Notes under the pieces: generated by a model
Databases searched by the model: none
What the model was told of the DNA's origin: nothing
The model's input: only the letters and a program-made list of their open reading frames with translations
Part shown: positions 20,052 to 64,000 of the stretch, in pieces
Position numbering within the stretch: the first letter of the stretch is position 1
Layout: each line of letters begins with the position of its first letter
Position numbers and translations under genes: made by a program
From: Planctomycetota bacterium
GTDB lineage: Bacteria; Planctomycetota; MHYJ01; JACPTZ01
DNA length: 64,000 nucleotides
Direction: 5' to 3'
Assembly (NCBI GenBank): GCA_016192525.1
Contig: JACPTZ010000218.1
Span: 9,490 to 73,489 of the forward strand

Positions 20052-20114
20052 CAGGGGTCAGGGGTCAGGGGTCAGGGGTCGGGGGTCAGGGGTCGGGGGT
20101 CGGGGGTGGGGGGT
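20052..20114 (+). repeat. nine tandem heptamers CRGGGGT (G-tract array)
   Basis: caggggt x4, cgggggt, caggggt, cgggggt x2, ggggggt, directly abutting repeat B2. Confidence 0.9.
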
Positions 20115-24448: not shown

Positions 24449-24640
24449 CCGTACGAGGTTACCGCATTGTCATCCTGAGCTCAGCCGGCCGCTCCGCCAC
24501 ACAGATGGCGGACAGGCGTTTGGCCGGCCGAGCGAAGGATCGCCAGCGTCGGAGTCTGCGAACCGCACACGCTGGTGATCCTTCGCCTCGGCCTGCGGCC
24601 GAGGCTCAGGATGACAAGGGACGGCAACCTCGTACCTCTA
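24449..24640. repeat. nested-palindrome intergenic element, family C copy 1 (TGTCATCCTGAGC ... GCTCAGGATGACA)
   Basis: Outer IR gtacgaggtt/aacctcgtac, TIR tgtcatcctgagc (24468-24480) / gctcaggatgaca (24604-24616), inner gcgaaggatcgccagcg/cgctggtgatccttcgc and hairpin ccgccacacagatggcgg. Confidence 0.8.
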
Positions 24641-32219: not shown

Positions 32220-32949
32220 GATCCTCTCCGATGGAGCGCGCCGCGGGGGCGGCGCGCGTGGGGCGGGCGTCCTCGCCTGCCTCGCGCGGCGCGGGCGGGG
32301 AGGCCTCACCCGCCGCACGGGACGGGGCCGTCTCCGCCAGCACCGCCGCCGGAGCGGGTACGGCAATCGTCAGCCGCGTCTGGCCGTGGACGCGGACATC
32401 GATCGGGACGACCCACCCGAGCGACAGTCCCAGCAGCGATTGCTTCTTGTGATGCTCCGCAAAGAACCGGACGTGCGGCGCCAGTCGACCGTGCTCCTTC
32501 CACGACGCGATCATCTTCCAGAGCGCCGTCGCTTTCACCCCGTCGTCCCAGAACGCGTACGGGGGATTGATGAAGACCAGATCGGGACGGCCGGCACCGG
32601 GATCGACTGAAGCCGTCCCCCGGATCGCCGTTTCCTCCAGCTCCAGCACATCGGAGACCAGCACGCGCGCCCGATCCGCCAGCCGCGTCTTCTCAAGGTT
32701 CCGCCGCAGGAGCGCGGCCACCTTCGCGTCGCGTTCCACGAAGACGCAGGCGGTGGCCCCGCGGCTCAGCGCCTCGATCCCCACACTCCCGGTTCCGGCG
32801 AAGAGGTCAAGCACGTGGGAGTCTGAAATGTCCGGAGCGAGGATGTCGAAGAGGGAGGTGCGGACCCGGGCGAGGGCGGGTCGGACGGCAAAGCCGGACA
32901 GCGTTTCGAGACGCATCCCTTTCGCGCGGCCGGCCAGTACCCGCTGCAT
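32212..32949 (-). CDS. rsmD: 16S rRNA (guanine966-N2)-methyltransferase RsmD family, with C-terminal extension
   Basis: LDLFAGTGSVGIEALSRGA (SAM motif I) and VFINPPY (N-methyltransferase motif IV). Confidence 0.8.
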   Translation of the reverse strand: MQRVLAGRAKGMRLETLSGFAVRPALARVRTSLFDILAPDISDSHVLDLFAGTGSVGIEALSRGATACVFVERDAKVAALLRRNLEKTRLADRARVLVSDVLELEETAIRGTASVDPGAGRPDLVFINPPYAFWDDGVKATALWKMIASWKEHGRLAPHVRFFAEHHKKQSLLGLSLGWVVPIDVRVHGQTRLTIAVPAPAAVLAETAPSRAAGEASPPAPREAGEDARPTRAAPAARSIGEDHV

Positions 32950-33034
32950 GACGGATCCTCGATGGCGGAAACGACGCGCCCGTCGATTCTAGACCTCCGC
33001 CGGGGGGGGGGTCAAGGGGATTGAGGGCGTTCGC

Positions 33035-39336: not shown

Positions 39337-39488
39337 TGTCATCCTGAGCGTCGGGCGCAGCCCCGCGGCAGATGCCGCGGGGCTGCGCCCGACGCGAAGG
39401 AACACCAGCCCGGCCCCAGGAAGGCGCTTGTTCTCAGGCAACGCTGGCGATCCTTCGCCTCGGCCTGCGGCCGAGGCTCAGGAGCACA
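39337..39488. repeat. family C nested-palindrome element, copy 2 (right end degenerate)
   Basis: tgtcatcctgagc at 39337-39349; right half gctggcgatccttcgcctcggcctgcggccgaggctcaggagcaca nearly identical to 24571-24616. Confidence 0.75.
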
Positions 39489-39505
39489 AGATCGGAGGAC
39501 CATCC

Positions 39506-41017
39506 ATGCCCCCCTTCAAGACCGAACTCGATCTCTACATCCGCTCCCGCTACCCGGTGATCTACGTCACCACCTGGGAGGAGGAGCGGGCGGAACGCGT
39601 CCTCACCGAGGTCGCCCAGCCGCTCGGCAAGGAACTCCACGTCTGGACCTCCTCCGAGGGATTCCGCGGGATCGACGCCTCCTGCACCGGCCCGCTGGAG
39701 GCCCTCGACATGATCGCCCGCTCCGGCGCCCGCGCCGTCTTCGTCCTCAAGGACTTCCACGTCTACCTCGAAGACGCCAAGGTCATCCGACGCATGCGCG
39801 ACCTCGTCGCGCTGCTCAAGAAATCGTTCAAGACGGTCGTCCTGCTTTCCCCCCAGTCGAAGGTCCCAGTCGAACTCGAGAAGGACTTCGTCGTCCTGCC
39901 GCTGCCGCTTCCCGACGCGGGCGAACTCCGGGCGGTCCTCACGAACTTTCTGAAGTCGCTCGACGGCGCCCGCGGAGTCCGGATCGACACGAATGAGGCG
40001 CTCATGGAGCGGGTCGTGAAGGCCTCGCTCGGTCTCACGGAGGCGCAGGCGGCGAACGTCTACGCCAAGGCCATCGTGAACGACCGGGCCTTCAGCATGG
40101 ACGATCTCCCGCTCATCAGCGGCGAGAAGAAGCAGGTCCTCCTCCAGACCGGGCTTCTCGAATACTACGACTCGGACCAGTCGGTGGCGGACATCGGCGG
40201 GCTGGACGAACTCAAGCGCTGGCTCGGGGAGCGGAACGACGCCTTCAGCGAGAAGGCGAGGGCCTACGGCCTTCCGGAGCCGAAAGGGGTGCTGCTCCTC
40301 GGGGTGCAGGGGTGCGGGAAGTCGCTCTGCTCGAAGGCGATCGCGGCGGTCTGGAAGCTGCCGCTCCTCCGGTTCGACGTCGGCGCCGTCTTCGGCAAGT
40401 TCATGGGGCAGTCCGAGGAAAACATGCGGAAGGCGCTCTCGATCGCGGAGTCGCTCGCGCCGGCGGTGCTCTGGTTCGACGAGATCGAGAAGGGGCTGAG
40501 CGGGATGAAGGGCTCCGCGGCCGCCGATTCCGGGACCACGGCGCGGGTCTTCGGCACCTTCCTGACCTGGATGCAGGAGAAGACGAAGCCGGTCTTCGTG
40601 GTGGCCACGGCGAATTCGATCGAGGACATGCCGCCGGAACTGCTCCGCAAGGGGCGGTTCGACGAGATTTTCTTCGTCGACCTCCCCACGCTTTCGGAGC
40701 GGCAGACGATCTTCGACATCCACCTCCGGCGGCGGAAGCGCGACGCGAAGAAGTTCGACGTGGTCCGCCTCGCCCGCGAGGGGGACCAGTTCAGCGGGGC
40801 GGAAATCGAGCAGGCGATCGTCTCGGCGATGTACACGGCGTTCGCCCAGAATCGGGAGTTCACCACGGACGACGTCTCCCGGAGCATCGCGGAGACCGTC
40901 CCGCTCGCGCGCACGATGGCGGAGAAGATCGAGGAACTGCGCGAGTGGGCGAAGTGGCGCACCCGGCCGGCGTCCAGAATTCCCGCGAAGGCGCCCCTCA
41001 CGACTCCGGCGCCGTAG
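39506..41017 (+). CDS. classical-clade AAA+ ATPase (Ycf46/CDC48-like single AAA module with N-terminal domain)
   Basis: RBS GGAGGA 39494-39499; Walker A GVQGCGKS, Walker B VLWFDEIEK, ATAN sensor-1, RKGRFDEIFFV; N-terminus YIRSRYPVIYVTTWEEER recalled as Ycf46-like (unverified). Confidence 0.85.
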   Translation: MPPFKTELDLYIRSRYPVIYVTTWEEERAERVLTEVAQPLGKELHVWTSSEGFRGIDASCTGPLEALDMIARSGARAVFVLKDFHVYLEDAKVIRRMRDLVALLKKSFKTVVLLSPQSKVPVELEKDFVVLPLPLPDAGELRAVLTNFLKSLDGARGVRIDTNEALMERVVKASLGLTEAQAANVYAKAIVNDRAFSMDDLPLISGEKKQVLLQTGLLEYYDSDQSVADIGGLDELKRWLGERNDAFSEKARAYGLPEPKGVLLLGVQGCGKSLCSKAIAAVWKLPLLRFDVGAVFGKFMGQSEENMRKALSIAESLAPAVLWFDEIEKGLSGMKGSAAADSGTTARVFGTFLTWMQEKTKPVFVVATANSIEDMPPELLRKGRFDEIFFVDLPTLSERQTIFDIHLRRRKRDAKKFDVVRLAREGDQFSGAEIEQAIVSAMYTAFAQNREFTTDDVSRSIAETVPLARTMAEKIEELREWAKWRTRPASRIPAKAPLTTPAP

Positions 41018-41057
41018 CCAATCCCCCTCTGCCCCGGCATCGGCTGCAAACTCCCTA

Positions 41058-41089
41058 TTGACAGGCATCATCATCATCATCATGATAAT
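41058..41089 (+). promoter_or_regulatory. candidate promoter with (CAT)6 microsatellite in the spacer, family D copy 1
   Basis: TTGACA (41058-41063), gg + (CAT)6 (41066-41083), GATAAT (41084-41089); spacer 20 nt. Confidence 0.45.
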
Positions 41090-41141
41090 GGCGGTTCGTC
41101 AGCGTGTCGGGATTGGCAGACCCTGATCACGGAGGCGGGCC

Positions 41142-42181
41142 ATGGGGACGAGGAAACGGGCGTGGGGTGCGCTGCGAAAACGGGCGTTGGAGTGCGCCGC
41201 GGAAGCGGCGCCGGGGCGCATGGCGGGAGCGGCGCTTGTGGTGATGATTGCGCTGCTCACGTTCGCGGGAAGCGTCCGCGACGCCAGGGCGCAGACGCCC
41301 GGCCCCGGCGGGATCGTCATCATCGGGGTAGATCTCTCAGGCCAGTGGAACTTCGACATGACGGTGCTGACCGCCTCGGATCCGGCGATGATCGGACGCA
41401 CCTTGACCGGCGAGTTCACGGTGACCGGCGGTGTTCCCTCCTGACCATCACGCGGCCAGCGACGCAGACGCCGGCGGAGCGGATCGGGAGCGCGTTTCAG
41501 GCAGCGTCGCGGCGCATGTCGGATACGGCTTCGCTGGCGGCCGCGAGTATCCGATCGATCGTTGACGCCGCCCTGGTCGAGATGGCGGACGCCGCGACGA
41601 TGGAAGAGGCGCGCCTTGTCGAACGGAACGCGAAAACCGGGATCTCGGTGGTGGTTTGGTCCGCCTTCCGACAGATCGAAGAGGACATGAGGGGCTTCCG
41701 TTCCGCTGCGGACGAGATTGTCATCTCAGCTAGCGAGGTGGATCAGTGTCTCCTGCGTCGCCTTGCGGGGTCCATGACCGGGCAGATCGGCGCGCGGGCA
41801 GGCGAGGCAAAACGGAGCATAACCGTTGCTTCACACGAGGGACGGATGTTGCTTCAGGATGGAAGCAAGGAGAATCCACCCGCAGCTCCCCCGCTGCCGC
41901 CGAAGAAAATGGAGCACAAGATCAAAGTTCGGTTCGACGGGGAGACTACCTATCCCTATTCTCCCGACGACAAGCCGACTGAGCCTGCGGCGCGGAAGAA
42001 TCTCAACCAGGACACCCATCTGCCTGTTGAATTGAAGGCGCAGTTTCAAATCAGGCTTTTCTGCGACGAGGACGAAGTGGACTGCGTCCAATTTGAGATC
42101 CACATCTTCGTCGATGAGGGTCCCGGTGGGTCGATTGTTTTCAAGTCCGATCCACCAAAGATAGTGGAGTGCGAGCCTTAG
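41142..42181 (+). pseudogene. family D secreted protein, copy 1, disrupted by an out-of-frame internal deletion
   Basis: Frame 0 ORF 41142-41444 (signal peptide + AQTPGPGGIVIIGVDLSGQWNFDMTV..TVTGGVPS-stop) continues in the -1 frame (LTITRPATQTPAERIGSA.. to 42181). The intact paralog at 62778 has 228 nt where this copy has 8 nt. Confidence 0.55.
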
Positions 42182-42184
42182 GCG

Positions 42185-43483
42185 ATGGTCTATGCGAGAT
42201 CTTTCTCTTGTTCCTCGCTCTTGACGGCGCTGGTGATCTCCGTCGCCGCCGCTCAAGACCCTCTCATGGCCCCCGTCTCCGAGTCAAGCGAGGCGGAGGC
42301 TGCAGTGCAGGAGCTCAGAAATCTGCCTGACCCGGGGGACGATTGGGACCGATTGTCGGTTTGCCCCGCAGTCGCCAAGTGTGTCGCAGCAGATTGGCGC
42401 GCCGCCCCTGCGTTGGAGTCCCTGGCGAAGTCACCGGCTCCCCGTTGGGTCAGGGTCGCAGCACTGTACGCCCTTGGTCAGATCGGACTGTCCGCCGCTT
42501 CGCCCCATTCCTGGGCTGACGCCGGCGATCCCGTCCTCGGTGCAGCAATTGCATCCATGCTGGACAATGCAACACGCGCAGGTTCCATGTCCCATGATCT
42601 GCCAGCAACACTCGCTGAGACAGATAGTACATCTGCTCGACTGGTAGAGTTGTTCGGCAAACCCATTACCCTGAGTCCATCTGAAGAACGCAACCGTGTA
42701 GCGACGCTAATCGCCCGTCTCCAGACCTCGTCCTCCATCGGAATTCGCGGTCCGTCTGTCGAACTGCCGGATTCACGGATCATCGCGCTGCTTTCTCTGC
42801 ATTGGGACGAAACGGCCCGACAGATTCGACCGGCGTTGCTCCAGGACAGTGGAGCATTCTGTCGTCGAACGCTCTACGCCACTCTCGCGCTGAGTTCTCC
42901 CGGAGCCCTGGCGGATCGCGGGGACCTACAGCTTGTCCTTACCGATTGCCCGCACATGGAGTCCACCAGTCCCATCGACTCGCTCCTGATGCTCTACGGA
43001 CTCGCCAAGGTCGGCACTCCGGCAGCCATTGCAAAGATGCGCTCGCTGCAGTGTTCCCCGTCGTCTCCATCGCTTGCGGGCATCTTGGAGAGACTGCTGC
43101 GCGACCCGCAAACTCTCGATCTCACGCATCTCATGCAAGACGTCCGCTCAGTCTCGTCGCCCGGAGAAGACAGCCGAGGCGGACGCGGAGCCAATCTCAC
43201 GCACTTTCCCTGGTCTCGCAGCCCGGACCCAGGAAATCCCATGGGGCCGCGCGTAGGAGGGGCGGTGGCGGCCATGACGCCAGATCCGCCGCCGCAGTGG
43301 CCCGAAACAATCACAGCGAGAGAGATTCACCGTAGCAATGGGCCGGATTGTCGCACCCCGGAGCCTTCGAGTTCCCAGCGGAGCAGTCTCGAGGAGACCT
43401 CGTTGGCATCCTGGTTTACGATCGGCCTCGCCCTACTCACCGTTGTCGCTGCCATTGCCTTGTGGCGGCGCGGCAGGCACTAA
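42185..43483 (+). CDS. hypothetical HEAT/ARM-like repeat protein with N-terminal signal peptide and C-terminal TM anchor
   Basis: 432 aa; starts 4 nt after the D1 stop; MVYARSFSCSSLLTALVISVAAA/QD; C-terminal WFTIGLALLTVVAAIALW; visibly lower GC and weaker GC3 bias than neighbours. Confidence 0.55.
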   Translation: MVYARSFSCSSLLTALVISVAAAQDPLMAPVSESSEAEAAVQELRNLPDPGDDWDRLSVCPAVAKCVAADWRAAPALESLAKSPAPRWVRVAALYALGQIGLSAASPHSWADAGDPVLGAAIASMLDNATRAGSMSHDLPATLAETDSTSARLVELFGKPITLSPSEERNRVATLIARLQTSSSIGIRGPSVELPDSRIIALLSLHWDETARQIRPALLQDSGAFCRRTLYATLALSSPGALADRGDLQLVLTDCPHMESTSPIDSLLMLYGLAKVGTPAAIAKMRSLQCSPSSPSLAGILERLLRDPQTLDLTHLMQDVRSVSSPGEDSRGGRGANLTHFPWSRSPDPGNPMGPRVGGAVAAMTPDPPPQWPETITAREIHRSNGPDCRTPEPSSSQRSSLEETSLASWFTIGLALLTVVAAIALWRRGRH

Positions 43484-46934: not shown

Positions 46935-46963
46935 TTGACACCCTTCCGCCCGGTGGATATAAG
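46935..46963 (+). promoter_or_regulatory. near-consensus sigma70-type promoter upstream of the Cys-leader / sulfate-assimilation unit
   Basis: TTGACA (46935-46940), 17-nt spacer, TATAAG (46958-46963), preceded by an A-tract. Confidence 0.6.
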
Positions 46964-46990
46964 GGCGCGTCTCACGTGTCAGGGAATCCC

Positions 46991-47071
46991 ATGCGCGCGA
47001 ACCTGTCGGCCAATTTGAGCGTTTCGAAGCGGCCCATGGTCCGGCTCGTGGCGATGTGTTGTTGCGGCTAA
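46991..47071 (+). CDS. candidate leader peptide 1, MRANLSANLSVSKRPMVRLVAMCCCG
   Basis: 26 codons, AGGGA 5 nt upstream of ATG; three consecutive Cys codons (47057-47065) two codons before TAA. Confidence 0.5.
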   Translation: MRANLSANLSVSKRPMVRLVAMCCCG

Positions 47072-47119
47072 ACGGCCTCGACCCCTGACACGCTGAAGAC
47101 CCCCCGGAAGAATCCGAAG

Positions 47120-47150
47120 CCTCCAGCCTGTCAGGGCTGGGGGTTTTTTT
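47120..47150 (+). terminator. intrinsic terminator 1
   Basis: 9-bp stem cctccagcc / ggctggggg (47120-47128 / 47135-47143), 6-nt loop, followed by T7 (47144-47150). Confidence 0.7.
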
Positions 47151-47327
47151 GTTGCCCGGGCGGCGGGGCGGTCCCCCGCTCAGGACCCGTGGTCCGGCAG
47201 GGCGGAAGACGGAACGCGAGACTTCTCATCGACCCGGAGTGGACTCTGAACCGCGGGGTCCCGCCCCCTGCGTCCTGACCGTACATCGGGTCGCCGGATG
47301 TGTGACCTCGCCGACAAGGAAAGGCCC

Positions 47328-47584: not shown

Positions 47585-48502
47585 ATGCTGGTCTGGCCCC
47601 TCATTCTTACCGGCGCGCTCGTGGGGATTCTCGTGGGACTCACCTCCCTCGGAGGAGGTTCCGTTCTCACCCCCGCCCTGGTCCTCCTCCTGGGCATTCC
47701 CCCGTCTCTCGCCGTCGGGTCGGATGTTCTCATCGCGAGCGTGATGAAACTGGTCGGGGGGGGCGTTTATGCCGCCCGCCGCGCCGTTCACTGGCCCACG
47801 GTCCTGCGACTGTCCTCCGGATCGGTTCCCGGGGCCCTGCTCGGGATCGCCCTCCTGAACCGCCTCCCCAAGGGCGCGCTCGACCTCTTCATCGGACGTT
47901 CCCTCGGGGTCGTCCTCGTTCTGGCCGGGACGGCCACGCTTCTCCGGCTGCTGCGCCGCCCGAGCGTCTCTGAGGCGGCGTCGAAGCCGCCGTCCAGCCC
48001 GTGGACGGTCCTCCTCGGGTTCGTTACGGGTCTGCTGGTGGGAGTGACGAGCATCGGGAGCGGATCGCTCCTTCTCTGCGTCCTCGCCTGGGCGTGGCCG
48101 CTGCGCTCCCAGACGCTCGTCGGCACCGATCTCGTGCACGCCTTTCTCCTCTCCTCGGCTGCGACGGTCGGTCACCTGCTGTCGGGTCGGGTCGACTTCG
48201 CCCTCGCCGGCGCCGTGCTGGCCGGGGCGGTTCCGGGCGTCCTGATCGGCGCCCGGTTGACGTTTGCCATTCCGGAGCGGGCGCTCCGGACCGCCCTCGC
48301 GACACTGCTGGTGGGGGTGGGAACGTACCTGTCCGTCTTCCGGCTTCCGGAGGCGCGGGCTGCCGATGAAGTCTCCGGGCGGCACGGCGGCGCTTCCGCG
48401 CCGCACTCCACCCCCCCCGCGCTGCACTCCGCGCCCCCCGCGCCGCACCCCGGGGGCACGGAGCCGGAGGCGGTTCCATCCTTCAAGGAGTCTCCCGAAT
48501 GA
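47585..48502 (+). CDS. TauE/SafE (DUF81) family anion permease
   Basis: Multi-TM protein GALVGILVGLTSLGGGSVLTPALVLLLGIP; ATG 47585 after GAAAGGAAG; stop overlaps cysH start (ATGA). Confidence 0.8.
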   Translation: MLVWPLILTGALVGILVGLTSLGGGSVLTPALVLLLGIPPSLAVGSDVLIASVMKLVGGGVYAARRAVHWPTVLRLSSGSVPGALLGIALLNRLPKGALDLFIGRSLGVVLVLAGTATLLRLLRRPSVSEAASKPPSSPWTVLLGFVTGLLVGVTSIGSGSLLLCVLAWAWPLRSQTLVGTDLVHAFLLSSAATVGHLLSGRVDFALAGAVLAGAVPGVLIGARLTFAIPERALRTALATLLVGVGTYLSVFRLPEARAADEVSGRHGGASAPHSTPPALHSAPPAPHPGGTEPEAVPSFKESPE

Positions 48503-52799: not shown

Positions 52800-54906
52800 T
52801 CCGAAGACCTTCGGCCCCGCCCGGCTGGGCTTTGCTGACGAGAAGGACGTCGACCTCTTCGTCGACACCCTCGAGAAATTCGAACGGGGCGAAATCGATT
52901 CCGACGCCTGGCGCTCGTTCCGCCTCCTGAACGGTGTCTACAGCCAGCGGCAGGACGAATGGATGATGGTCCGGGTGAAGATCCCGCAGGGGATCCTCAC
53001 GGCGGACCAGCTTCGGGCGCTGGCGGAGGTGGCGGAGCGGTGGTCGAACGGCAAGGGGCACGTCACCACCCGTCAGAACGTCCAGTTCCACTTCGTGAAG
53101 CTGGAGCACGCGGAGGAGGTGCTCCGTCGCTGCGCCGAGGCGGGCCTCACCACGCGCGAGGCCTGCGGGAATTCCGTCCGGAACATCACCACCTGCCCGT
53201 TCGCGGGGACGTCGGCCGTCGAGCCGTTCGATCCGACGCCGTATGCGGAGGCCCTCACGCGACACCTTCTCGGCGGCCCCTGGTCCTCCTCGCTTCCGCG
53301 CAAGTTCAAGATCGCCTTCGGCGGCTGCTGCGGGACCGATTGCGTCCACGCGGCGATCAACGATCTGGGATTCCTCGCCCGGCTGGGTGGCACGGGCGGC
53401 TTGTCCGCCCGTGCCAGCGGCGGCTTGTCCACCCGTGCCAGCGGCGGCTTGTCCGCCCGTGCCCTGCGCGGCTTCCGCCTCACCATCGGCGGCGGCACGG
53501 CCGTCCTTCCCCGGTCCGGCTTTGTCGCGCACGAATTTCTTCCGGCGACGGAGGTCCTCGAAGCGGCCGAGGCGGTGGTGCGGGTGTTCCATCGGATCGG
53601 CGACCCGAAGGACCGTCACCGCGCGCGACTCAAGTACGTCATTGAGCGACTGGGGCAGGAGGCCTTTCTGCGCGAGTATGAAAGGGAGCGCGAGGCGATC
53701 CGGTCGGAGGGGGGGCGGCCGCTGATCCCTGATGTCGGGGAGGATCGCGATGCCTCCCCCGGGCAGGTCCCGATCTCATCGTTGCAGGATGGACGACCGA
53801 AGAGCCGTGACCTGTCCCGCGATCCGCGACCCGCGGCCTCCGATCACCGGTCGGCACCCGCCCCTACGGATTCCGTTCCCGTCCATGATTCAGCCCTTCC
53901 GCGATCCGGTTTCCTCCCGCGACCCGGTTACACCGAGTTCGCCCGCACCAATGTCCGGCCGCAAAAGCAGCCGGGCTTCTCGACCGTGATCGTCCGGCTG
54001 CCGCTCGGAGATGTCACGACAGGGCAGTTCCGCAGCCTCGCCGATCTGGCCGGGCGATACGGTGAGGGCGAGGCGCGGACCACGCACGAGCAGAACGTCG
54101 TCCTGCGCTACATCCCCGACGACCGTCTCGCGAATCTCCACGCGGAGCTGGAGACAACCGGGCTCGCGAGACCGGGCGCCCGGACGGTCGTGGATGTAAC
54201 CTCCTGCCCCGGGGCGGCATCGTGCCGGATCGCCGTCACCGCCTCGCGCGGGCTCGCCTCGCTGCTGGGCGAGTTTCTTGAGAGCCGACCCGACCTCGTG
54301 GCGAAGGCGCCGTCGCTCCATCTCAAGATTTCGGGTTGCCCGAACGGCTGCGGCCAGCATCACATCGCCGGGATCGGCTTCCAGGGTGGGGTGCGACGCT
54401 TCGGCAAGACGGTAATTCCACAATACCACGTGTTTCTCGGCGGCGGCATCTCCATTCCCGAGACGGTAGCACAGGCCTTCCAGCCTGTGCGCGAACCTTT
54501 GCTCGAGCCTGTGTCGCAGCCTGCGCTCCAGCGCGTGCCGGGCACCCCGCTGCCGGCCCCGAACAGCCCCGCAGCGAGGCTCGCGAAGCGAGCCTCTGCC
54601 GCGGGGCGTACCGAGGGGCGGCCGCCGGCGGAAGGCGGTGCCACGTTCGGCCGTCTCGCCGCGCGCATCCCGGCTCGACGCGTCCCGTCGGCGCTGGAGC
54701 GTCTCATTGATCTCTACGCCACGGAGCGCATCGGGGACGAGGCACCGGAGGAGTTCTTCGCCCGGCTCCCGCTCGACCGCGCGACGAAGCTCCTCGCCGA
54801 TCTCGAGGAGTTCGGCCCGGAGGACGTGACCCCGCAAGACCTTGTCGATCTCGGTGAGGAGAAGGCCTACGCGGTCCAGGTCTCCGCCGGGGAGTGCGCG
54901 GTGTGA
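52783..54906 (+). CDS. assimilatory sulfite reductase (ferredoxin-type siroheme/4Fe-4S hemoprotein) with several insertions
   Basis: ATG 52783 after AGGAG; RQNVQFHFV, REACGNSVRNITTCP, TSCPGAASC, ISGCPNGCGQHH; 707 aa with low-complexity inserts including a 3x24-bp repeat. Confidence 0.85.
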   Translation: MLSLDDPKTFGPARLGFADEKDVDLFVDTLEKFERGEIDSDAWRSFRLLNGVYSQRQDEWMMVRVKIPQGILTADQLRALAEVAERWSNGKGHVTTRQNVQFHFVKLEHAEEVLRRCAEAGLTTREACGNSVRNITTCPFAGTSAVEPFDPTPYAEALTRHLLGGPWSSSLPRKFKIAFGGCCGTDCVHAAINDLGFLARLGGTGGLSARASGGLSTRASGGLSARALRGFRLTIGGGTAVLPRSGFVAHEFLPATEVLEAAEAVVRVFHRIGDPKDRHRARLKYVIERLGQEAFLREYEREREAIRSEGGRPLIPDVGEDRDASPGQVPISSLQDGRPKSRDLSRDPRPAASDHRSAPAPTDSVPVHDSALPRSGFLPRPGYTEFARTNVRPQKQPGFSTVIVRLPLGDVTTGQFRSLADLAGRYGEGEARTTHEQNVVLRYIPDDRLANLHAELETTGLARPGARTVVDVTSCPGAASCRIAVTASRGLASLLGEFLESRPDLVAKAPSLHLKISGCPNGCGQHHIAGIGFQGGVRRFGKTVIPQYHVFLGGGISIPETVAQAFQPVREPLLEPVSQPALQRVPGTPLPAPNSPAARLAKRASAAGRTEGRPPAEGGATFGRLAARIPARRVPSALERLIDLYATERIGDEAPEEFFARLPLDRATKLLADLEEFGPEDVTPQDLVDLGEEKAYAVQVSAGECAV

Positions 54907-59000: not shown

Positions 59001-60622
59001 GCCTCTACGCCCTCGACGGGAGAGTCGACCGCGCCTCGACCCCGCCCGCGCTGCTCTGGAAGGCTGAGACCGACTACGAGATCTGGGGAGCGGTCTCGTC
59101 CTGTGACATCACCCACGACGGAGTCCCGGACCTCTTCGTCGCCTCCGACGATCACTACGCCTACGCCTTCGACGGCCAGGACGGGCATCGCCTCTGGCGA
59201 TTCCGCGCCGGCCACCAGATCATCTCCGCCCTCGAGATCGCAGACCTCGATGAGGACGGTGTGGCGGAGGCGGTCTTCACGTCGAAGGACCGGAGCGTGT
59301 ACGCGGTCCGCGTTGAGCCGGCGTCGCCGACGCTCTGGATCGCGGAGACCGGCCCGGTGTCCACTTTTTCCCCGGAGTGCCTCCGGGTGAACGGCGACTC
59401 GATCCCCGACGTGATCGTCGGGACGGAAGACGGCCACCTGTGCGCCCATTCGGGGGCCGAGGGGGCCCCGCTCTGGAGATGCCGCGTCGGCGGAATGACG
59501 CCAGGCCCCCTGGCGCGGGGGAAGTTCGACGACGACGGCGTGGAGGACCTCCTCTCCGGCGGAAGCGACGAGATGATGTACGCCGTGTCGGGCCGGACCG
59601 GGACCGTCCTCTGGAAGGTGCGATCCGGGGCCCTCCCGATGGAGACCGACTGTCTCGAGGACATGAACGGCGACGGTTTCACGGATGTCGCTCTGGGATT
59701 TCGCGGGGGAGTGCTGCGCGCGATCTCGGGGAAGGATGGTCTGGCCCTGTGGAACTTCCGCGTCGAGGACGCCCTGAGCAGCATTCCGTTCGGGAGGGAT
59801 CTGGACGGAGACGGCCGGCGTGAGGTGCTGGTGGGGTCCGGGGACGGCACGGTTCACGCCCTGTCCTCGCGCGACGCCGCGCCGGCGTGGACCTGCGGGG
59901 CGGAGATGGCGGTCGATTCCGTGAGCCCGCTCGCCGATCTCGACGGGGAGGGCGGGCCGGACCTGCTGCTCGGCTCGGACGGCGGGGGAATTCTGGCGAT
60001 CAGGGCGCACGACGCGGGGCGTCTGTGGAAGCGCGAGATGGGCGCGCGGCTCGGCCTTCCGCCCGGGCTGGTGGACGCCAGAGGCGACGGGGTGATGGAC
60101 GTCGTGGCGGGAATGGAGGACGGCAGGGTGATCGCCCTCTCGGGAAGGGACGGCCGCACGCTCTGGGAACTCGCCGCGTCGAAGGCCTCCATCGGGGCCT
60201 GGCTGAGGGAGGACCTGGACCGCGACGGGGTGACGGACGCGGTGGTCGGGGCGGGAACGTCTCTGGCGCGGGCGATATCGGGGAAGTCGGGCCGGGTCCT
60301 GTGGGAGAGCCCCGCGTCCGGAACAGAGTTCACCGCCTTCAGCGCGGCCGAACTCACCGGCGATCGCGTGCCGGACCTGCTCGCGGGAACGAAGGCCGGG
60401 ATCCTGTACGCCATCTCGGGGGCGGACGGGACGCTGCTGTGGCGGTACCGGGTGGGTCGCCCCGGTTCCGGCCGGCCCTGCGCGATGGACCTGAACGGGG
60501 ACGGCATCCCGGATGTGGTGGCCGGCTCGCTCGACGGCCGCCTCCACGCCATCGACGGCCGCCCGCGTCGCCGGCTGGGGGTGCTCTGGTCGGTGGAGGG
60601 GGGGCGGGGAGAGAGGAAGTAG
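56066..60622 (+). CDS. Ser/Thr protein kinase with MshEN-like N-terminus, TM, PEGA domain and a very large FG-GAP/PQQ-like repeat ectodomain
   Basis: 1518 aa; kinase motifs LGSGAMSDIY, ALKVL, HRDMKPRNIVV, DFGLA, APE; TM IGLGLAAALVMLLALLTW; many repeats DLDGDG..EVVV.S.DG.VYAL.G..G..LW. Confidence 0.9.
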   Translation: MPTDADLLLGRLAVERGFVTAGQRDSALEEQERETRDTGRVRFLGEILVSLGLLTPEQLLELSEAGVERVLRLQHTVIEQAPAGAASAAHSNGTPPGAASAAHSNEARPAARPAAEILVEKGLLSREGLEHGSRVRKTSPVPPEEPYFADPSLLGIEGSRLGRYRILRRLGSGAMSDIYLADQIDLKRRVALKVLPRELSMNPDRIARFAREIEILARLHHPHICPVFESGRDGEVQFYAMANLEGLDLDQVLKTQRVDPARAAEIARQIADALHCAHQAGIVHRDMKPRNIVVTRGRRKRSDSGKPRASAGGTDSTTGSSVSLPGAGSDSRASAGPRLPSPEYEDHAYLIDFGLAFYQEADPLTVAGAVLGTPSYMAPEQAVGGFMTVDARTDVYGAGAVLYEMLTLRPPFTGSHMTEIITRVTSYEATMPSRLRADCPRELEIITMKCLEKDPNRRYATAQDLEADLAHFLAGEPITAQPASVIYKVRRKITRNPAASIGLGLAAALVMLLALLTWGPARITIRSSPSGALVSIDGRPTGLRTPVEDRCSWPPGARLITLEHEGYEPESALLETRALAAVEIAITLRHHRGILTVTSNENAVRMEVFPAGESSSPFALSEVAAGDRVEGRRGKPSFDSPPPDGGRGFAQDGRGEPDRVRPWRTLTIPQEELELDTGRWRLVFSKENFFGAEQIVEVARDGIARVHVTMRPMLAWSFATGDAIEGSTAVADLDGDGHLEVVVASGDGAVYALRGEAGGVLWKTVRSFPFVATPAVADLEGDGAVEVIALGEKEALVLAGRDGAVLRSWPVEEPGLTRPAIGKIDGDGVLDIIVCDGAGRVRACSGTDGREIWRFTTGGKIHSSPALCRLDRDGVPDVVVATQASRVCALSGATGTPLWSRDFAPGSTLASPVVGELNGDGTPDVVIGSWDSAVYALDGRTGEPLWQFPTNKHIPSTAELTDLTHDGQLDVVIGSADGCLYALDGRVDRASTPPALLWKAETDYEIWGAVSSCDITHDGVPDLFVASDDHYAYAFDGQDGHRLWRFRAGHQIISALEIADLDEDGVAEAVFTSKDRSVYAVRVEPASPTLWIAETGPVSTFSPECLRVNGDSIPDVIVGTEDGHLCAHSGAEGAPLWRCRVGGMTPGPLARGKFDDDGVEDLLSGGSDEMMYAVSGRTGTVLWKVRSGALPMETDCLEDMNGDGFTDVALGFRGGVLRAISGKDGLALWNFRVEDALSSIPFGRDLDGDGRREVLVGSGDGTVHALSSRDAAPAWTCGAEMAVDSVSPLADLDGEGGPDLLLGSDGGGILAIRAHDAGRLWKREMGARLGLPPGLVDARGDGVMDVVAGMEDGRVIALSGRDGRTLWELAASKASIGAWLREDLDRDGVTDAVVGAGTSLARAISGKSGRVLWESPASGTEFTAFSAAELTGDRVPDLLAGTKAGILYAISGADGTLLWRYRVGRPGSGRPCAMDLNGDGIPDVVAGSLDGRLHAIDGRPRRRLGVLWSVEGGRGERK

Positions 60623-60676
60623 CTACGGCTCCAGCGCTGCTCCCCTCGCCCCGACGAGGGTACGGGGTTCCCGTAT

Positions 60677-60701
60677 TGTCATCCTGAGCTCAGCCGGCCG
60701 C
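60677..60701. repeat. family C element, left-half fragment
   Basis: tgtcatcctgagctcagccggccgc identical to the left end of 24468-24492; no matching right end found nearby. Confidence 0.6.
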
Positions 60702-60827
60702 CCCCGGCCATCGCGGCCCGCCTGCGGACCCTGGGCGGGTGGCTCGGCGCGAACGCGCGCGCGCTGGCGGAGACGCTCCCGCTCGCGCGCGGGTAGCCTC
60801 GCCGACCTTTCCGCGAGCCACACTCCC

Positions 60828-61364
60828 TCACCCGCCGAAGAGACCCGAAACCTCCGGGGCCACCTGAAGCGCCGGAACCTGCCGCTTCAGCTCCGAGAGG
60901 AGGCGGCGGAGATCCGCCGATCTCCAGCCCGTGAACGACAACTCGAAGAGAACGTTCTTCCCCGTCCAAAAGACAACGTATTCCTCGGGGACCGTCTCGT
61001 CGGCGAAGTGAGACGATCCTTTGGTTGCCGCGGTGATCGAGGCCGCCGGCCAGGAGTTCCGGGAAAACCAGGTGCTGAGTGTCAGTACTCCATCCGCCAG
61101 TACCAGCCGTCGGGAGCGATAATAGGCCGCGGAAACCAGGAGCAGCAGGTCGACCCCGGCGACCCCGAGCCAGATCAGCAGGACGTTTCGAAGGCTCAAC
61201 CCTCCACTCCCGCCGCCGAGAGGGGTCCCCGTCAGAACGAGGACCACGGGCATACCCAGGGCGATGAGTGCGAGGATCCCGGCGGCGAGGAAGAAAGCGC
61301 CGCCGGAGCCCCGGGCCTCTACGGGGGAGCGGGGCGCGGTCAACGGCGGGGATTCGGAGTTCAT
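60828..61364 (-). CDS. hypothetical membrane protein (two TM plus small C-terminal beta-rich domain)
   Basis: Start MNSESPP at 61364; TMs FFLAAGILALIALGMPVVLVL and LLIWLGVAGVDLLLLVSAAYY. Confidence 0.5.
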   Translation of the reverse strand: MNSESPPLTAPRSPVEARGSGGAFFLAAGILALIALGMPVVLVLTGTPLGGGSGGLSLRNVLLIWLGVAGVDLLLLVSAAYYRSRRLVLADGVLTLSTWFSRNSWPAASITAATKGSSHFADETVPEEYVVFWTGKNVLFELSFTGWRSADLRRLLSELKRQVPALQVAPEVSGLFGG

Positions 61365-61505
61365 GATTTGGCGATCAAGAATACCATCCAAACGGAATCG
61401 TCTCAAGAGCGAATTCCCGACGCCTCATGTCTCGCCGTGCCGCGGAAATCCTCCACGATTCCCTTCCCGGGCGCCCCCCCCCGGCGTATGATCCGGACGA
61501 GAGCC

Positions 61506-62612
61506 ATGTTCGAGATCATCCCCGACCGCAAAGCCTACCGCCGCCTCCAGCACCTTTTGCCCGCGCACCGGACGATGCTGGCCGATCCGGTCCGGAATCG
61601 CGCCTTCTTCGAGGCGCTGCGGCGGTCGGTCACGTCGCGCTCCCGAGTCCTCGACGTCGGGGCGGGGACCGGGATCTGGGCGATCGCGGCGGCCCGGCTC
61701 GGGGCCCGGAGGGTGGTGGCCATCGAGAAGGAGCGCCTTCTGATTCCGCTCATCCGGCGGCTCGCGGAAGAGTAGGGGGTCGCCGATCGGGTGGAGGTGC
61801 TGCAGGGCGACTCGCGGCGGCTCGCGGCGGAGGCCATCGAACAGAGCGTTGGAGCAACCTCCCCGGTGGGGCGCGGCGCGCCGGCGCCGCTCCGTTCGCC
61901 CGCCCGTCGAGCCGATCCTGCGAGTTTCGATCTCCTCGTCACGGAGACGATCGGCCGTCAGGGCTTTGACGAATCGATCGTTCCGACGGTGATCGATGCC
62001 CGCCGTCGATTCCTCCGCGAGGGGGCCACGATCGTCCCGCGGACCATCGCGCTCCGGGCGGCCCCGGTCCGGATGGACTGGCTGGCGGCCCCGATCCCCG
62101 CGGGTCTTTCCAACGGGGCGCCGCTCGTAGCGCCGCCGTCAGGCGGCCGGTCGAATCACGGCCTGCGACTCGGCGTTCTCGAATCGTTGCTTCTTGAGGT
62201 CCCGATCGCCCCTCCTGAACGCGAGCGGTTCGCTCTCCTCGCGAGGCCGGTCTCGCTGATCGAGGTCGATCTCGCCACGGTGCAGCGTCCCCCCCGCCTC
62301 CACAACCTCACGGCGAGTTGGCGCCTCAACGATACCCGCCGTCTGAACGGGATCGCCCTCTGGGTGGAGGCCGGGATCGCGCCCGGGGTCCGGCTCTCCA
62401 CCCGATCCGACACGCACTGGGCGCCCACGCTTTTCCCGCTCGCCCCGTTCCGCGCCCGCCGGGGCACTCTCGAGGCCTCGATCTCCCTCCCGCCCCGCCC
62501 CACCTGCTGGACCGCCTCGCTCCACGCGAACGGCCGCGTCGAGCGCCAGTCCCGCGGACCGCTCTTCGCCTATCTCGCGATGACGCGGAACCGGTCGCAC
62601 AACGCGCCCTGA
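61506..62612 (+). pseudogene. PRMT-fold (protein arginine N-methyltransferase-like) SAM methyltransferase interrupted by a single in-frame TAG
   Basis: HRTMLADPVRNRAF, VLDVGAGTGIWAIAAARLGARRVVAIE, [TAG 61773-61775], DLLVTETIGRQGFDES (double-E loop), DTHWAPTLF (THW loop); both halves are in the same frame. Confidence 0.7.
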
Positions 62613-62689: not shown

Positions 62690-62725
62690 TTGACACGTCA
62701 TCATCATCATCATCATCATCATAAT
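62690..62725 (+). promoter_or_regulatory. candidate promoter with (CAT)8 microsatellite in the spacer, family D copy 2
   Basis: TTGACA (62690-62695), cgt + (CAT)8 (62699-62722), with CATAAT (62720-62725) as the homolog of GATAAT in copy 1; spacer 24 nt. Confidence 0.45.
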
Positions 62726-62777
62726 GCTGGCTCGTCAGCGTGTGGGGCATCGCAAACCCTGTTCACGGAGACGGGCC

Positions 62778-64000
62778 ATGGGGACGAGGAGAGCGTCATG
62801 GGAGTGCGCCGCGGGAGCGGCGCGGGGACGTATCGCGGGCGCGGGCCTCGTGGGGCAGGCGTCCCCGCCTGCCCCACGGGCCCCACGTGTCGCGCGTGAC
62901 GCGGGCGAGGACGCCCGCGCCACGGCGGCCGGGCGCGTCCCGCGGGTGGGGCTGGCCCTGATGATGGCGTTCGTCGTCTTTGCGGGCGCCGCGCGCGAGG
63001 CCCGGGCGCAGACCCCCGGCCCCGGCGGAGTCGTCATCATCGGGGTGAATCTGTCCGGCCAGTGGGACTTCGACATGACAGTGCTGAACGCCTCGGACCC
63101 GGCCATGATCGGCCGGACCTTCACAGGCTCCTTTACCGTGACCGGCGGGGTGCCGGACTACCTCGGCGAGGGCACCTTCAACGGTCTCCCGGCCACCATC
63201 AGCGGAGACGGCTCGATCGATCTCTCGGACGGGACAACGATCGTCCTCTCGGACCACATCGCGACGACCGATTCGACCACGACCTTCACCGCCACGCTCG
63301 TGTCCGGTGACTTCGGTACAGGCACGTTCCAGGGCGGCACGGTGGACGACCTGCAGACCTGGAGCGGGGTCTTCAAGATCGCCATCACGCGGACACCGAC
63401 GCAGCCGCCGGAGGAACAGATCCGGAGCGCCTCCGAGACGGCGGCGCAGAACATGACAGATACGGCTACGGTCGCGTCGGCCGGCATCCGCTCGACGGCC
63501 GAAGCCGCCTTGGCCGAGATGCAAGAGGCCCCGACAGTGCGGGAAGTTCGGGAGATCGCCCGGCGGGCGGAGGCCGCCATGTCGGCGATTGTTAGAGCTT
63601 CATTCCACACCATCGAGGATGAGATGCGGCGTTTTCGTTCCGTCGCCGATGGTATTGTCAGCTCCGCTTCAAAGGGAGATCAGCGCACTCTGCGTCGCGT
63701 CGCCGGGTCTCTGACTGGACAGATCGGCACTCGCGCCGGCGAAGCGAAGCGGCGCGTAATGGATGCCTCGCAAGATGGACGCATGCTGTTCCAGGATGTG
63801 AGAGCGGGGAGGGGGAAGAAGAAGCCGCTGGTCGAGATACGAGACAACGGGATGTCGATCTATGAGTACCCCTCGGCCATCGGAGAAACAAAGTTCAAAC
63901 TCGGTGACACTACTTACGGCGGCAGGATCGTGCATGCGTTTGAGGTGGTCTGGCCCACGGGGCCGGGCTACAAGATCGAGCAGTGGATAAAGCGAACGAT
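62778..64000 (+). CDS. family D secreted protein, copy 2, intact and running off the right window edge
   Basis: Hand translation from ATG 62778 is open to base 64000 (not in the ORF track because no stop is reached). Signal peptide ..LALMMAFVVFAGAAREARA/QTPGPGGVVIIGVNLSGQWDFDMTV. The true start may be GTG/ATG 62947-62962, because 62778-62946 contains a perfect 12-bp hairpin and aligns to the copy 1 leader. Confidence 0.7.
   Translation, partial: MGTRRASWECAAGAARGRIAGAGLVGQASPPAPRAPRVARDAGEDARATAAGRVPRVGLALMMAFVVFAGAAREARAQTPGPGGVVIIGVNLSGQWDFDMTVLNASDPAMIGRTFTGSFTVTGGVPDYLGEGTFNGLPATISGDGSIDLSDGTTIVLSDHIATTDSTTTFTATLVSGDFGTGTFQGGTVDDLQTWSGVFKIAITRTPTQPPEEQIRSASETAAQNMTDTATVASAGIRSTAEAALAEMQEAPTVREVREIARRAEAAMSAIVRASFHTIEDEMRRFRSVADGIVSSASKGDQRTLRRVAGSLTGQIGTRAGEAKRRVMDASQDGRMLFQDVRAGRGKKKPLVEIRDNGMSIYEYPSAIGETKFKLGDTTYGGRIVHAFEVVWPTGPGYKIEQWIKRT

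Follow-up and report, generated by a model that had tools for sequence, protein, structure and literature searches.

A promoter that appears to be of the sigma-70 type, followed by a structured 5′ leader, heads each sampled member of a small secreted-protein family found only in a Planctomycetota MAG and in related metagenome contigs (groundwater Planctomycetes), and the CAT run in this module would be the promoter spacer. Judging from the sequence, we put the probability of this reading at about 0.5.

Two copies of the module in the window

Two loci in the window (the whole stretch of 64,000 nt that was analysed) carry the same module, which consists of TTGACA, a CAT run, a (G/C)ATAAT hexamer and a shared leader of ∼50 nt (Table 1). 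Re-reading both loci confirmed the anatomy and the coordinates given by the original prediction, with a (CAT)6 tract and a 20-nt spacer in copy 1 and a (CAT)8 tract and a 24-nt spacer in copy 2. That prediction had missed a further -10-like hexamer at canonical spacing in each copy, namely CATGAT in copy 1 and CATCAT in copy 2. The leader motif TCGTCAGCGTGTSGGGNNNNGCARACCCTGWTCACGGAG has exactly two matches in the window, at 41096-41134 and 62732-62770, with a shuffle expectation of 0.00, and CATCATCATCAT is confined to the two CAT tracts, again with an expectation of 0.00. These tracts are the only CAT runs of at least four units in the window, where the other perfect trinucleotide repeats of at least four units are (CCG)7 and (GCC)4 only. 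Because the leader matches compare with an expectation of 0.00 and CAT runs are this rare in DNA of 68% G+C, the CAT module is real and far beyond chance.

Table 1. Features of the two module copies and their genes in the window
Feature	Position	Strand	Remark
Copy 1, -35-like box TTGACA	41058..41063	+	TTGAC kept in 7/7 module copies
Copy 1, filler GG	41064-41065	+	
Copy 1, (CAT)6 microsatellite	41066..41083	+	fills the promoter spacer; same count in independent Logan assembly L005
Copy 1, CATGAT, -10-like hexamer	41081..41086	+	17 nt from -35 box; 10/12 consensus matches
Copy 1, GATAAT, -10-like hexamer	41084..41089	+	20-nt spacer from -35 box
Copy 1, predicted 5′ leader hairpin	41093..41141	+	outer stem GGTTCGTC (41093-41100) pairs with GGCGGGCC (41134-41141)
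Copy 1, predicted inner stem-loop of leader	∼41103-41131		
Copy 1, Shine-Dalgarno GGAGG	41131-41135		within the hairpin
Copy 1 gene, part 1	41142..41444	+	start codon, long signal peptide, beginning of conserved domain; stop made by frameshift
REP-like hairpin in copy 1 N-terminal coding region	41186..41213	+	
Copy 1 gene, remainder	41444..42181	+	other reading frame; helical region and C-terminus
Partner gene, HEAT-repeat protein	42185..43483	+	hydrophobic C-terminal segment
Copy 2, -35-like box TTGACA	62690..62695	+	
Copy 2, filler CGT	62696-62698	+	
Copy 2, (CAT)8 microsatellite	62699..62722	+	
Copy 2, CATCAT, -10-like hexamer	62714..62719	+	18 nt from -35 box; 10/12 consensus matches
Copy 2, CATAAT, -10-like hexamer	62720..62725	+	24-nt spacer from -35 box
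Copy 2, predicted 5′ leader hairpin	62729..62777	+	outer stem GGCTCGTC pairs with GACGGGCC
Copy 2, Shine-Dalgarno GGAG	62767-62770		
Copy 2 gene HYY93_16765	62778..64000	+	intact; continues past window end

Spacer length in seven copies

Logan metagenome contigs supplied five extra copies (loci L001, L006, L009, L010 and L011), which with copies 1 and 2 of the window gives seven from at least three sample series (Table 2); the promoters of the MAG paralogs HYY93_05015, HYY93_01115 and HYY93_05110 are outside this set. Scans of GTDB genomes (one pattern each for protein and DNA), of JGI metagenomes (with two DNA patterns) and of the IMG/VR viral collection returned neither the module nor the protein family.

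Table 2. The seven module copies; repeat counts are CAT units inside the spacer, and the first three bases of a CATAAT hexamer make one further unit
Copy	Source	-35-like box	Spacer content	xATAAx hexamer	Spacer length
1	window	TTGACA	GG + (CAT)6	GATAAT	20 nt
2	window	TTGACA	CGT + (CAT)7	CATAAT	24 nt
3	L001-L004	TTGACA	GCG + (CAT)2	CATAAT	9 nt
4	L006-L008	TTGACC	CAGCC + (CAT)5	CATAAT	20 nt
5	L009	TTGACG	CCGAT + (CAT)5	GATAAT	20 nt
6	L010	TTGACA	G11 + CTTCGGTTG	TATAAG	20 nt
7	L011	TTGACG	CAGCCGGT + (CAT)4	CATAAT	20 nt

All seven copies have a repeat, either (CAT)n or G11, between the -35-like and xATAAx elements, both of which were assigned by motif alone. The distance between these elements is 20 nt in five of the seven (copies 1, 4, 5, 6 and 7), with differing filler sequences, so that the standard geometry of the family reads TTGACN, 20 nt, (C/G/T)ATAA(T/G). 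The four 20-nt copies of the CAT type (1, 4, 5 and 7) align without gaps and share an identical block of (CAT)4-5 + SATAAT, whereas their first 5–8 spacer bases have diverged; homology between copies starts ∼10 nt upstream of TTGAC. As the original prediction had it, repeat number differs between paralogs while the flanks are conserved, and tracts of 3, 6, 6 and 8 units give spacers of 9, 20, 20 and 24 nt (the full tracts are (CAT)8 in copy 2, (CAT)3 in copy 3 and (CAT)6 in copy 4). Relative to the 20-nt norm, the spacer of copy 2 is longer by one unit and one base. Copies 2 and 3 have a 3-nt filler in common and are exactly five CAT units apart, which indicates that slippage has occurred. In the distant family member that carries copy 6 (L010 97-107, SRR22387960), a G11 homopolymer directly follows TTGACA; a change from G11 to G8 would set a 17-nt spacer to TATAAG.

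Choice of the -10 hexamer

The CAT repeat itself offers a -10-like hexamer every 3 nt, and CATCAT matches TATAAT at four of six positions. CATGAT or CATCAT is found 17–18 nt from the -35-like box in copies 1, 2, 4, 5 and 7 (in 5 and 7 by direct reading), with CATCAT at 17 nt in copies 4 and 7 and CATGAT at 17 nt in copy 5. Under the sigma-70 criterion of two hexamers separated by 16–19 nt, copy 1 thus qualifies through CATGAT at 17 nt and copy 2 through CATCAT at 18 nt, whereas the better SATAAT hexamers, with spacers of 20 and 24 nt, fall outside this range, as does copy 3 with its 9-nt spacing. In the same genomes, four further, unrelated promoter-like sites are all spaced at 17–18 nt: TTGACA-17-TATAAG before a small RNA that folds strongly and carries a terminator, TTGACC-18-TAGAAT before an rsmD-like gene, TTGACC-17-TACAAT and TTGACA-17-CATAAT. 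Hence canonical spacing applies in this lineage, and the sites would define a lineage promoter consensus of TTGACN, 17–18 nt, xAxAAx.

We infer the -10 hexamer, and with it the transcription start, from these positions. If CATSAT at 17 nt is used, a start 7 nt downstream would coincide with the G that opens the leader hairpin, whereas from SATAAT at 20 nt a start 7 nt downstream would fall on pyrimidines inside the stem. The CATSAT model cannot cover all five 20-nt copies, because copy 6, despite its 20-nt spacing, has no -10-like hexamer at 17–18 nt (TTGTAT and TGTATA are there). In the CAT-type copies, the 20-nt geometry would bring a weaker -10-like hexamer, CATCAT or CATGAT, to the canonical spacing of 17 nt, and RNA polymerase would initiate on the first G of the conserved hairpin or close to it. 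Copy 1 has the family-standard configuration, for which modest transcription is probable. Copy 2, with a 24-nt spacer and CATCAT at 18 nt, and copy 3, with a 9-nt spacer and no usable -10 hexamer, would be slippage derivatives whose promoter strength is probably altered.

The predicted leader hairpin

The leader is conserved more strongly than coding DNA: in pairs drawn from copies 2–5 and 7, identity is 72–98% in the leader, compared with 68–79% in the DNA of the conserved protein domain and 40–58% in the 60 nt upstream of the -35 box. All copies have GGAGG 6 nt upstream of the ATG that opens the signal peptide. A two-tier hairpin is predicted in all seven copies, with an 8–9-bp outer stem formed by the 5′ end of the leader and the bases preceding the ATG, and this outer stem is predicted to bury most of the Shine-Dalgarno GGAGG. 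Outer-stem substitutions among copies 1–5 and 7 are all pairing-neutral (U-G to C-G, U-G to U-A, G-C to G-U). In copy 6 the outer stem is GGCUGUCUC/GAGGCAGCC compared with GGUUCGUC/GGCGGGCC in copy 1, with three pairs changed on both sides, and GGG:CCC of the inner stem is swapped to CCC:GGG (direct reading); these compensatory changes come from one divergent sequence, aligned by eye.

Against the GC-rich background, the folding-energy z-scores of the hairpin (-0.1 to -1.1) are not significant. A covariance model of copies 1–4 recovered copies 5 and 7, missed copy 6, and gave a weak match to an unrelated palindrome at 24533-24584. Rfam 15 contains no family for the leader, its sole match in the window being a tRNA, and the best matches over 40950-41350 scored 10–14 bits, far below the gathering threshold. 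On the predicted structures, the 5′ leader hairpin over the ribosome-binding site is a conserved and previously undescribed element. Since its 3′ arm would cover the Shine-Dalgarno sequence, we infer that the hairpin would set mRNA stability or translation.

Genes headed by the module

All seven copies head orphan secreted proteins, which form a multigene family with variable C-termini. The copy 2 protein and HYY93_16765 of the MAG ‘Planctomycetes bacterium’ are identical. Among 5.8 billion proteins searched, the only paralogs were five from that same MAG, and an exhaustive profile search of 1.84 billion representatives ended with nine proteins in total, adding two distant relatives from other sequencing runs; a third distant relative, P0014, came from a later search. 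No Pfam family matches the secreted proteins. The AlphaFold model of a family protein has low overall confidence (mean pLDDT 52) and comprises a signal helix and a beta domain of eight strands, together with a three-helix bundle modelled with confidence and a C-terminus that is variable and disordered; Foldseek found no match to this model in the PDB at an E-value of ≤0.001.

Compared with copy 2, the copy 1 gene has a net deletion of 220 nt that shifts the frame (break at window 41438-41444). The same break is present in L005, an assembly from an independent sample, and the frameshift is therefore not an assembly error. A HEAT-repeat gene lies downstream of the family gene at copy 1, L001, L006 and L009; the downstream gene of L010 is cut by the contig end and unannotated, and the sequences of copy 2 and L011 end before the partner position. 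Genes scanned near the module encode an AAA ATPase (preceding copy 1), the HEAT-repeat protein and a DUF72 protein. Gene order and the modelled fold would together define a lineage-restricted two-gene cassette, of a secreted protein with a beta domain, a three-helix bundle and a variable C-terminus, and its HEAT-repeat partner.

Repeat stability and alternative explanations

The CAT count is identical, at consensus level, in all independent assemblies of each locus (2–5 per locus). For copy 1 the MAG and SRR12113422 were compared and have the same count (contig L012 starts downstream of this promoter). Copy 3 has the same count in the four of its five carrying contigs that were read (four runs), and copy 4 in three of its four (three runs); for copy 2, the upstream neighbour HYY93_16760 (273 aa) is recorded from NCBI only, and alternative starts of the copy 2 protein had no entry in the collection. 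Moreover, contigs cross the CAT tracts without breaking, and copies 4, 5 and 7 have kept exactly 20 nt through substantial divergence. This assembly-level constancy argues against a highly unstable tract. Across assemblies, no length difference was seen within a locus; only paralogs differ.

The original prediction held that both loci are currently OFF and poised to switch by slippage. Its structural part stands: the tract lies between a conserved -35-like box and an A/T-rich -10 region, the paralog tracts differ by whole CAT units and a distant member has G11 there, and the genes encode secreted proteins with variable C-termini. The claim that copy 1 is in an OFF-like state is not supported, because 20 nt is the norm of the family (five of seven copies, three sample series) and copy 1 is thus in the standard state, not in a special OFF state. 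Over-long spacing is also an unreliable sign of OFF when a -10-like hexamer is already present at 17–18 nt, as in copies 1, 2, 4, 5 and 7. The reading that both loci are OFF and switch is thus only partly supported, and as stated it is unsupported.

A true contingency locus would be one in which slipped-strand mispairing alters the number of CAT units (in copy 6, of Gs) at high frequency, with the 20- and 24-nt spacers as OFF or low states; loss of one unit from copy 1, or of two from copy 2, would then bring SATAAT to 17–18 nt and turn the gene fully on. We regard this as possible, if on the unlikely side. The repeat does sit in the core promoter, the other promoter-like sites of these genomes are spaced at 17–18 nt, and the G11 at the same position in a distant member is likewise 3 nt over the optimum; yet a -10-like hexamer is already available at 17–18 nt, and the five 20-nt copies would all have to be in the same supposed OFF state, with none at 17 nt. 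Similarly, paralogs differ by whole units, with copies 2 and 3 five units apart behind the same filler, whereas every independent assembly of a locus has the same count, contigs are unbroken across the tracts, the tracts are short (3–8 units), and copies 4, 5 and 7 hold exactly 20 nt while the remaining spacer and the gene diverged. The products, secreted and variable at the C-terminus within a multigene family, would suit such a locus, and there are parallels with porA, hif and vlhA (PMC3639595; PMC6258824; van Ham et al. 1993, as related in PMC11868660).

A ‘vernier’ form of contingency promoter in a free-living planctomycete, in which slippage would move between a weak -10 hexamer at optimal spacing and a strong one at optimal or poor spacing, we consider rather unlikely. 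Slippage would then grade or switch individual genes for a secreted protein and its HEAT partner, with a poly-G version doing likewise in the relative. Graded or switched expression through slippage is a live minority hypothesis, which the G11 copy strengthens.

The tract could instead be a neutral microsatellite in a tolerant spacer, with length differences that reflect drift after duplication and have no regulatory role. An intact module precedes a broken gene at copy 1, an apparently crippled 9-nt spacing precedes an intact gene at copy 3, and a C10 run also lies in the spacer of the promoter of a housekeeping rsmD-like gene, all of which would agree with neutrality. Drift would not, however, be expected to leave (CAT)4-5 + SATAAT identical in copies 1, 4, 5 and 7 when the first 5–8 spacer bases and the coding DNA diverged, nor to conserve a 20-nt spacer across three sample series, and an AT-rich triplet run is a strong outlier at 68% G+C. 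We hold neutrality to be quite improbable.

MerR-family promoters have 19–20-bp spacers, and the over-long 20-nt spacer might likewise be a regulated feature, keeping the promoter inactive until the DNA is untwisted by a MerR-type spacer-binding activator or by a change in supercoiling. The module resembles these promoters in having an over-long spacer between good hexamers, with a length of exactly 20 nt in five of seven copies, including the G-tract copy that has no alternative -10 hexamer at 17 nt. It differs in that the spacers contain no conserved dyad-symmetric operator, spacer sequence is wholly different between CAT-type and G-type copies, and no MerR-family regulator is encoded among the scanned neighbours (AAA ATPase, HEAT-repeat, DUF72). 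We consider an untwisting mechanism highly unlikely.

Very little can be said for the CAT/GATAAT array as the operator of a metal-responsive repressor (Fur-box hexamers NATWAT), or for the CAT run as a histidine-rich leader peptide. TGATAAT is a Fur half-site, it occurs in copies 1 and 5, and CATCAT is one position off NATWAT, but no inverted half-site follows TGATAAT and an A/T-rich array is wholly absent from copy 6, and we rejected the operator on these grounds. A TTG-initiated frame in copy 2 reads His8, but a His-leader attenuator was rejected because the CAT frame of copy 1 has no start codon, a 4-nt insertion shifts the frame in copy 3, and copy 6 lacks a CAT run; substitutions between copies also show no synonymous bias. 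We regard the minus-strand ORF that starts MMMMMM at 41083 as arising from the repeat itself.

Comparison with known systems

The preferred reading, a sigma-70-type promoter with a CAT spacer, has its nearest analogue in the vlhA (pMGA) family of Mycoplasma gallisepticum, where a (GAA)n tract precedes the start site by ∼40 nt and lies outside the -35/-10 spacer, expression is reported only at exactly 12 GAA units, and the unit number varies between strains (PMC6258824). Both systems comprise paralogs for exported proteins, each gene with its own promoter trinucleotide repeat in highly conserved flanks and with differing repeat number. The GAA tract is upstream of the core promoter, whereas the CAT tract is the spacer; strains vary there and no variation between samples was seen here; and the phyla and the proteins are unrelated.

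Repeats within the spacer are known from porA of Neisseria meningitidis, with poly-G between the -35 and -10 hexamers that varies within populations (PMC3639595), and from hifA/hifB of Haemophilus influenzae, with population-variable (TA)n between -35 and -10 (van Ham et al. 1993, as cited in PMC11868660). In both, repeat length sets spacer length and thus promoter strength. The repeat of the present module is likewise in the spacer, and G11 of copy 6 is in exactly that position. The differences are that porA and hif have units of 1–2 nt and fine steps, whereas steps here are 3 nt and the CAT repeat itself mimics a -10 hexamer in register; that they have a spread of lengths, whereas 20 nt is modal here; and that they vary in populations, whereas at assembly level we observed no such variation.

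In hmw1A of H. influenzae, heptanucleotide repeats are transcribed and form one arm of a hairpin that RNase III cleaves (PMC12721329). An intergenic simple repeat thus occurs together with a structured 5′ UTR in both systems, controlling expression in hmw1A and with a predicted role here. In the present module the hairpin is downstream of the repeat and excludes it, and the role proposed for it is occlusion of the Shine-Dalgarno sequence.

To our knowledge, nearly all repeat-bearing promoters come from pathogens and commensals. With a conserved example in an uncultured planctomycete from groundwater, the strategy would reach free-living bacteria, in which phage or competitors might exert the selective pressure. 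Were the vernier explanation true, these would form the first family of repeat-driven, phase-variable promoters to be reported from bacteria that are not host-associated. Whether or not the module switches, it would define a lineage promoter consensus, a leader hairpin and a two-gene cassette. As a general caution, a repeat that resembles the -10 hexamer makes ON/OFF calls from spacer length unreliable.

Other elements in the window

A REP-like hairpin of ∼28 nt (CGTTGGAGTGCGCCGCGGRAGCGGCGCC) occurs at 32234(+), 38256(-), 41190(+), 48387(-), 56316(-), 56355(-) and 62802(+), as well as at ∼181 in L001. The elements are on both strands, inside ORFs and in frame. The element reads as GAASAAHSN at two places in a Ser/Thr kinase and as (L/W)ECAA(E/G)AAPG in the N-region of the signal peptide of copies 1–3; copies 4–7 lack it. 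In the copy at 48387 the stem arms are swapped, a compensatory change. The pattern resembles that of in-frame palindromic mini-elements.

A candidate small RNA of ∼185 nt (window 46935-47152, plus strand) has a canonical promoter, TTGACA-17-TATAAG, and is closed by a long stem; its terminator hairpin is followed by T7. It folds with an MFE of -89 kcal/mol (z-score -4.8) and belongs to no Rfam family. Its ends, CACGTGTCAGGG (5′) and CCCTGACACG (3′), resemble the inner stem of the family leader, and a stretch of 10 nt, TCTCACGTGT, is identical in this RNA and in the leader of copy 6.

The C10 run (minus strand, 33002-33011) is within the 18-nt TTGACC...TAGAAT spacer upstream of the rsmD-like methyltransferase gene on the minus strand, which indicates that spacer repeats are not confined to the secreted-protein family. 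Just upstream of copy 2, an in-frame TAG at 61773-61775 splits an arginine-methyltransferase-like gene (60513-61775 and 61791-62612); it could reflect a pseudogene, a sequencing error or stop-codon readthrough. A 50-nt repeat with a GC-rich hairpin is 94% identical between 24569-24618 and 39441-39490, where the latter copy closely precedes the AAA ATPase gene located upstream of copy 1; the repeat may be another shared leader. Tandem repeats are also present, with (CAGGGGT)8 at 20052-20114 and 2.9 copies of a 24-nt unit (GGCGGCTTGTCCGCCCGTGCCAGC) at 53395-53463.
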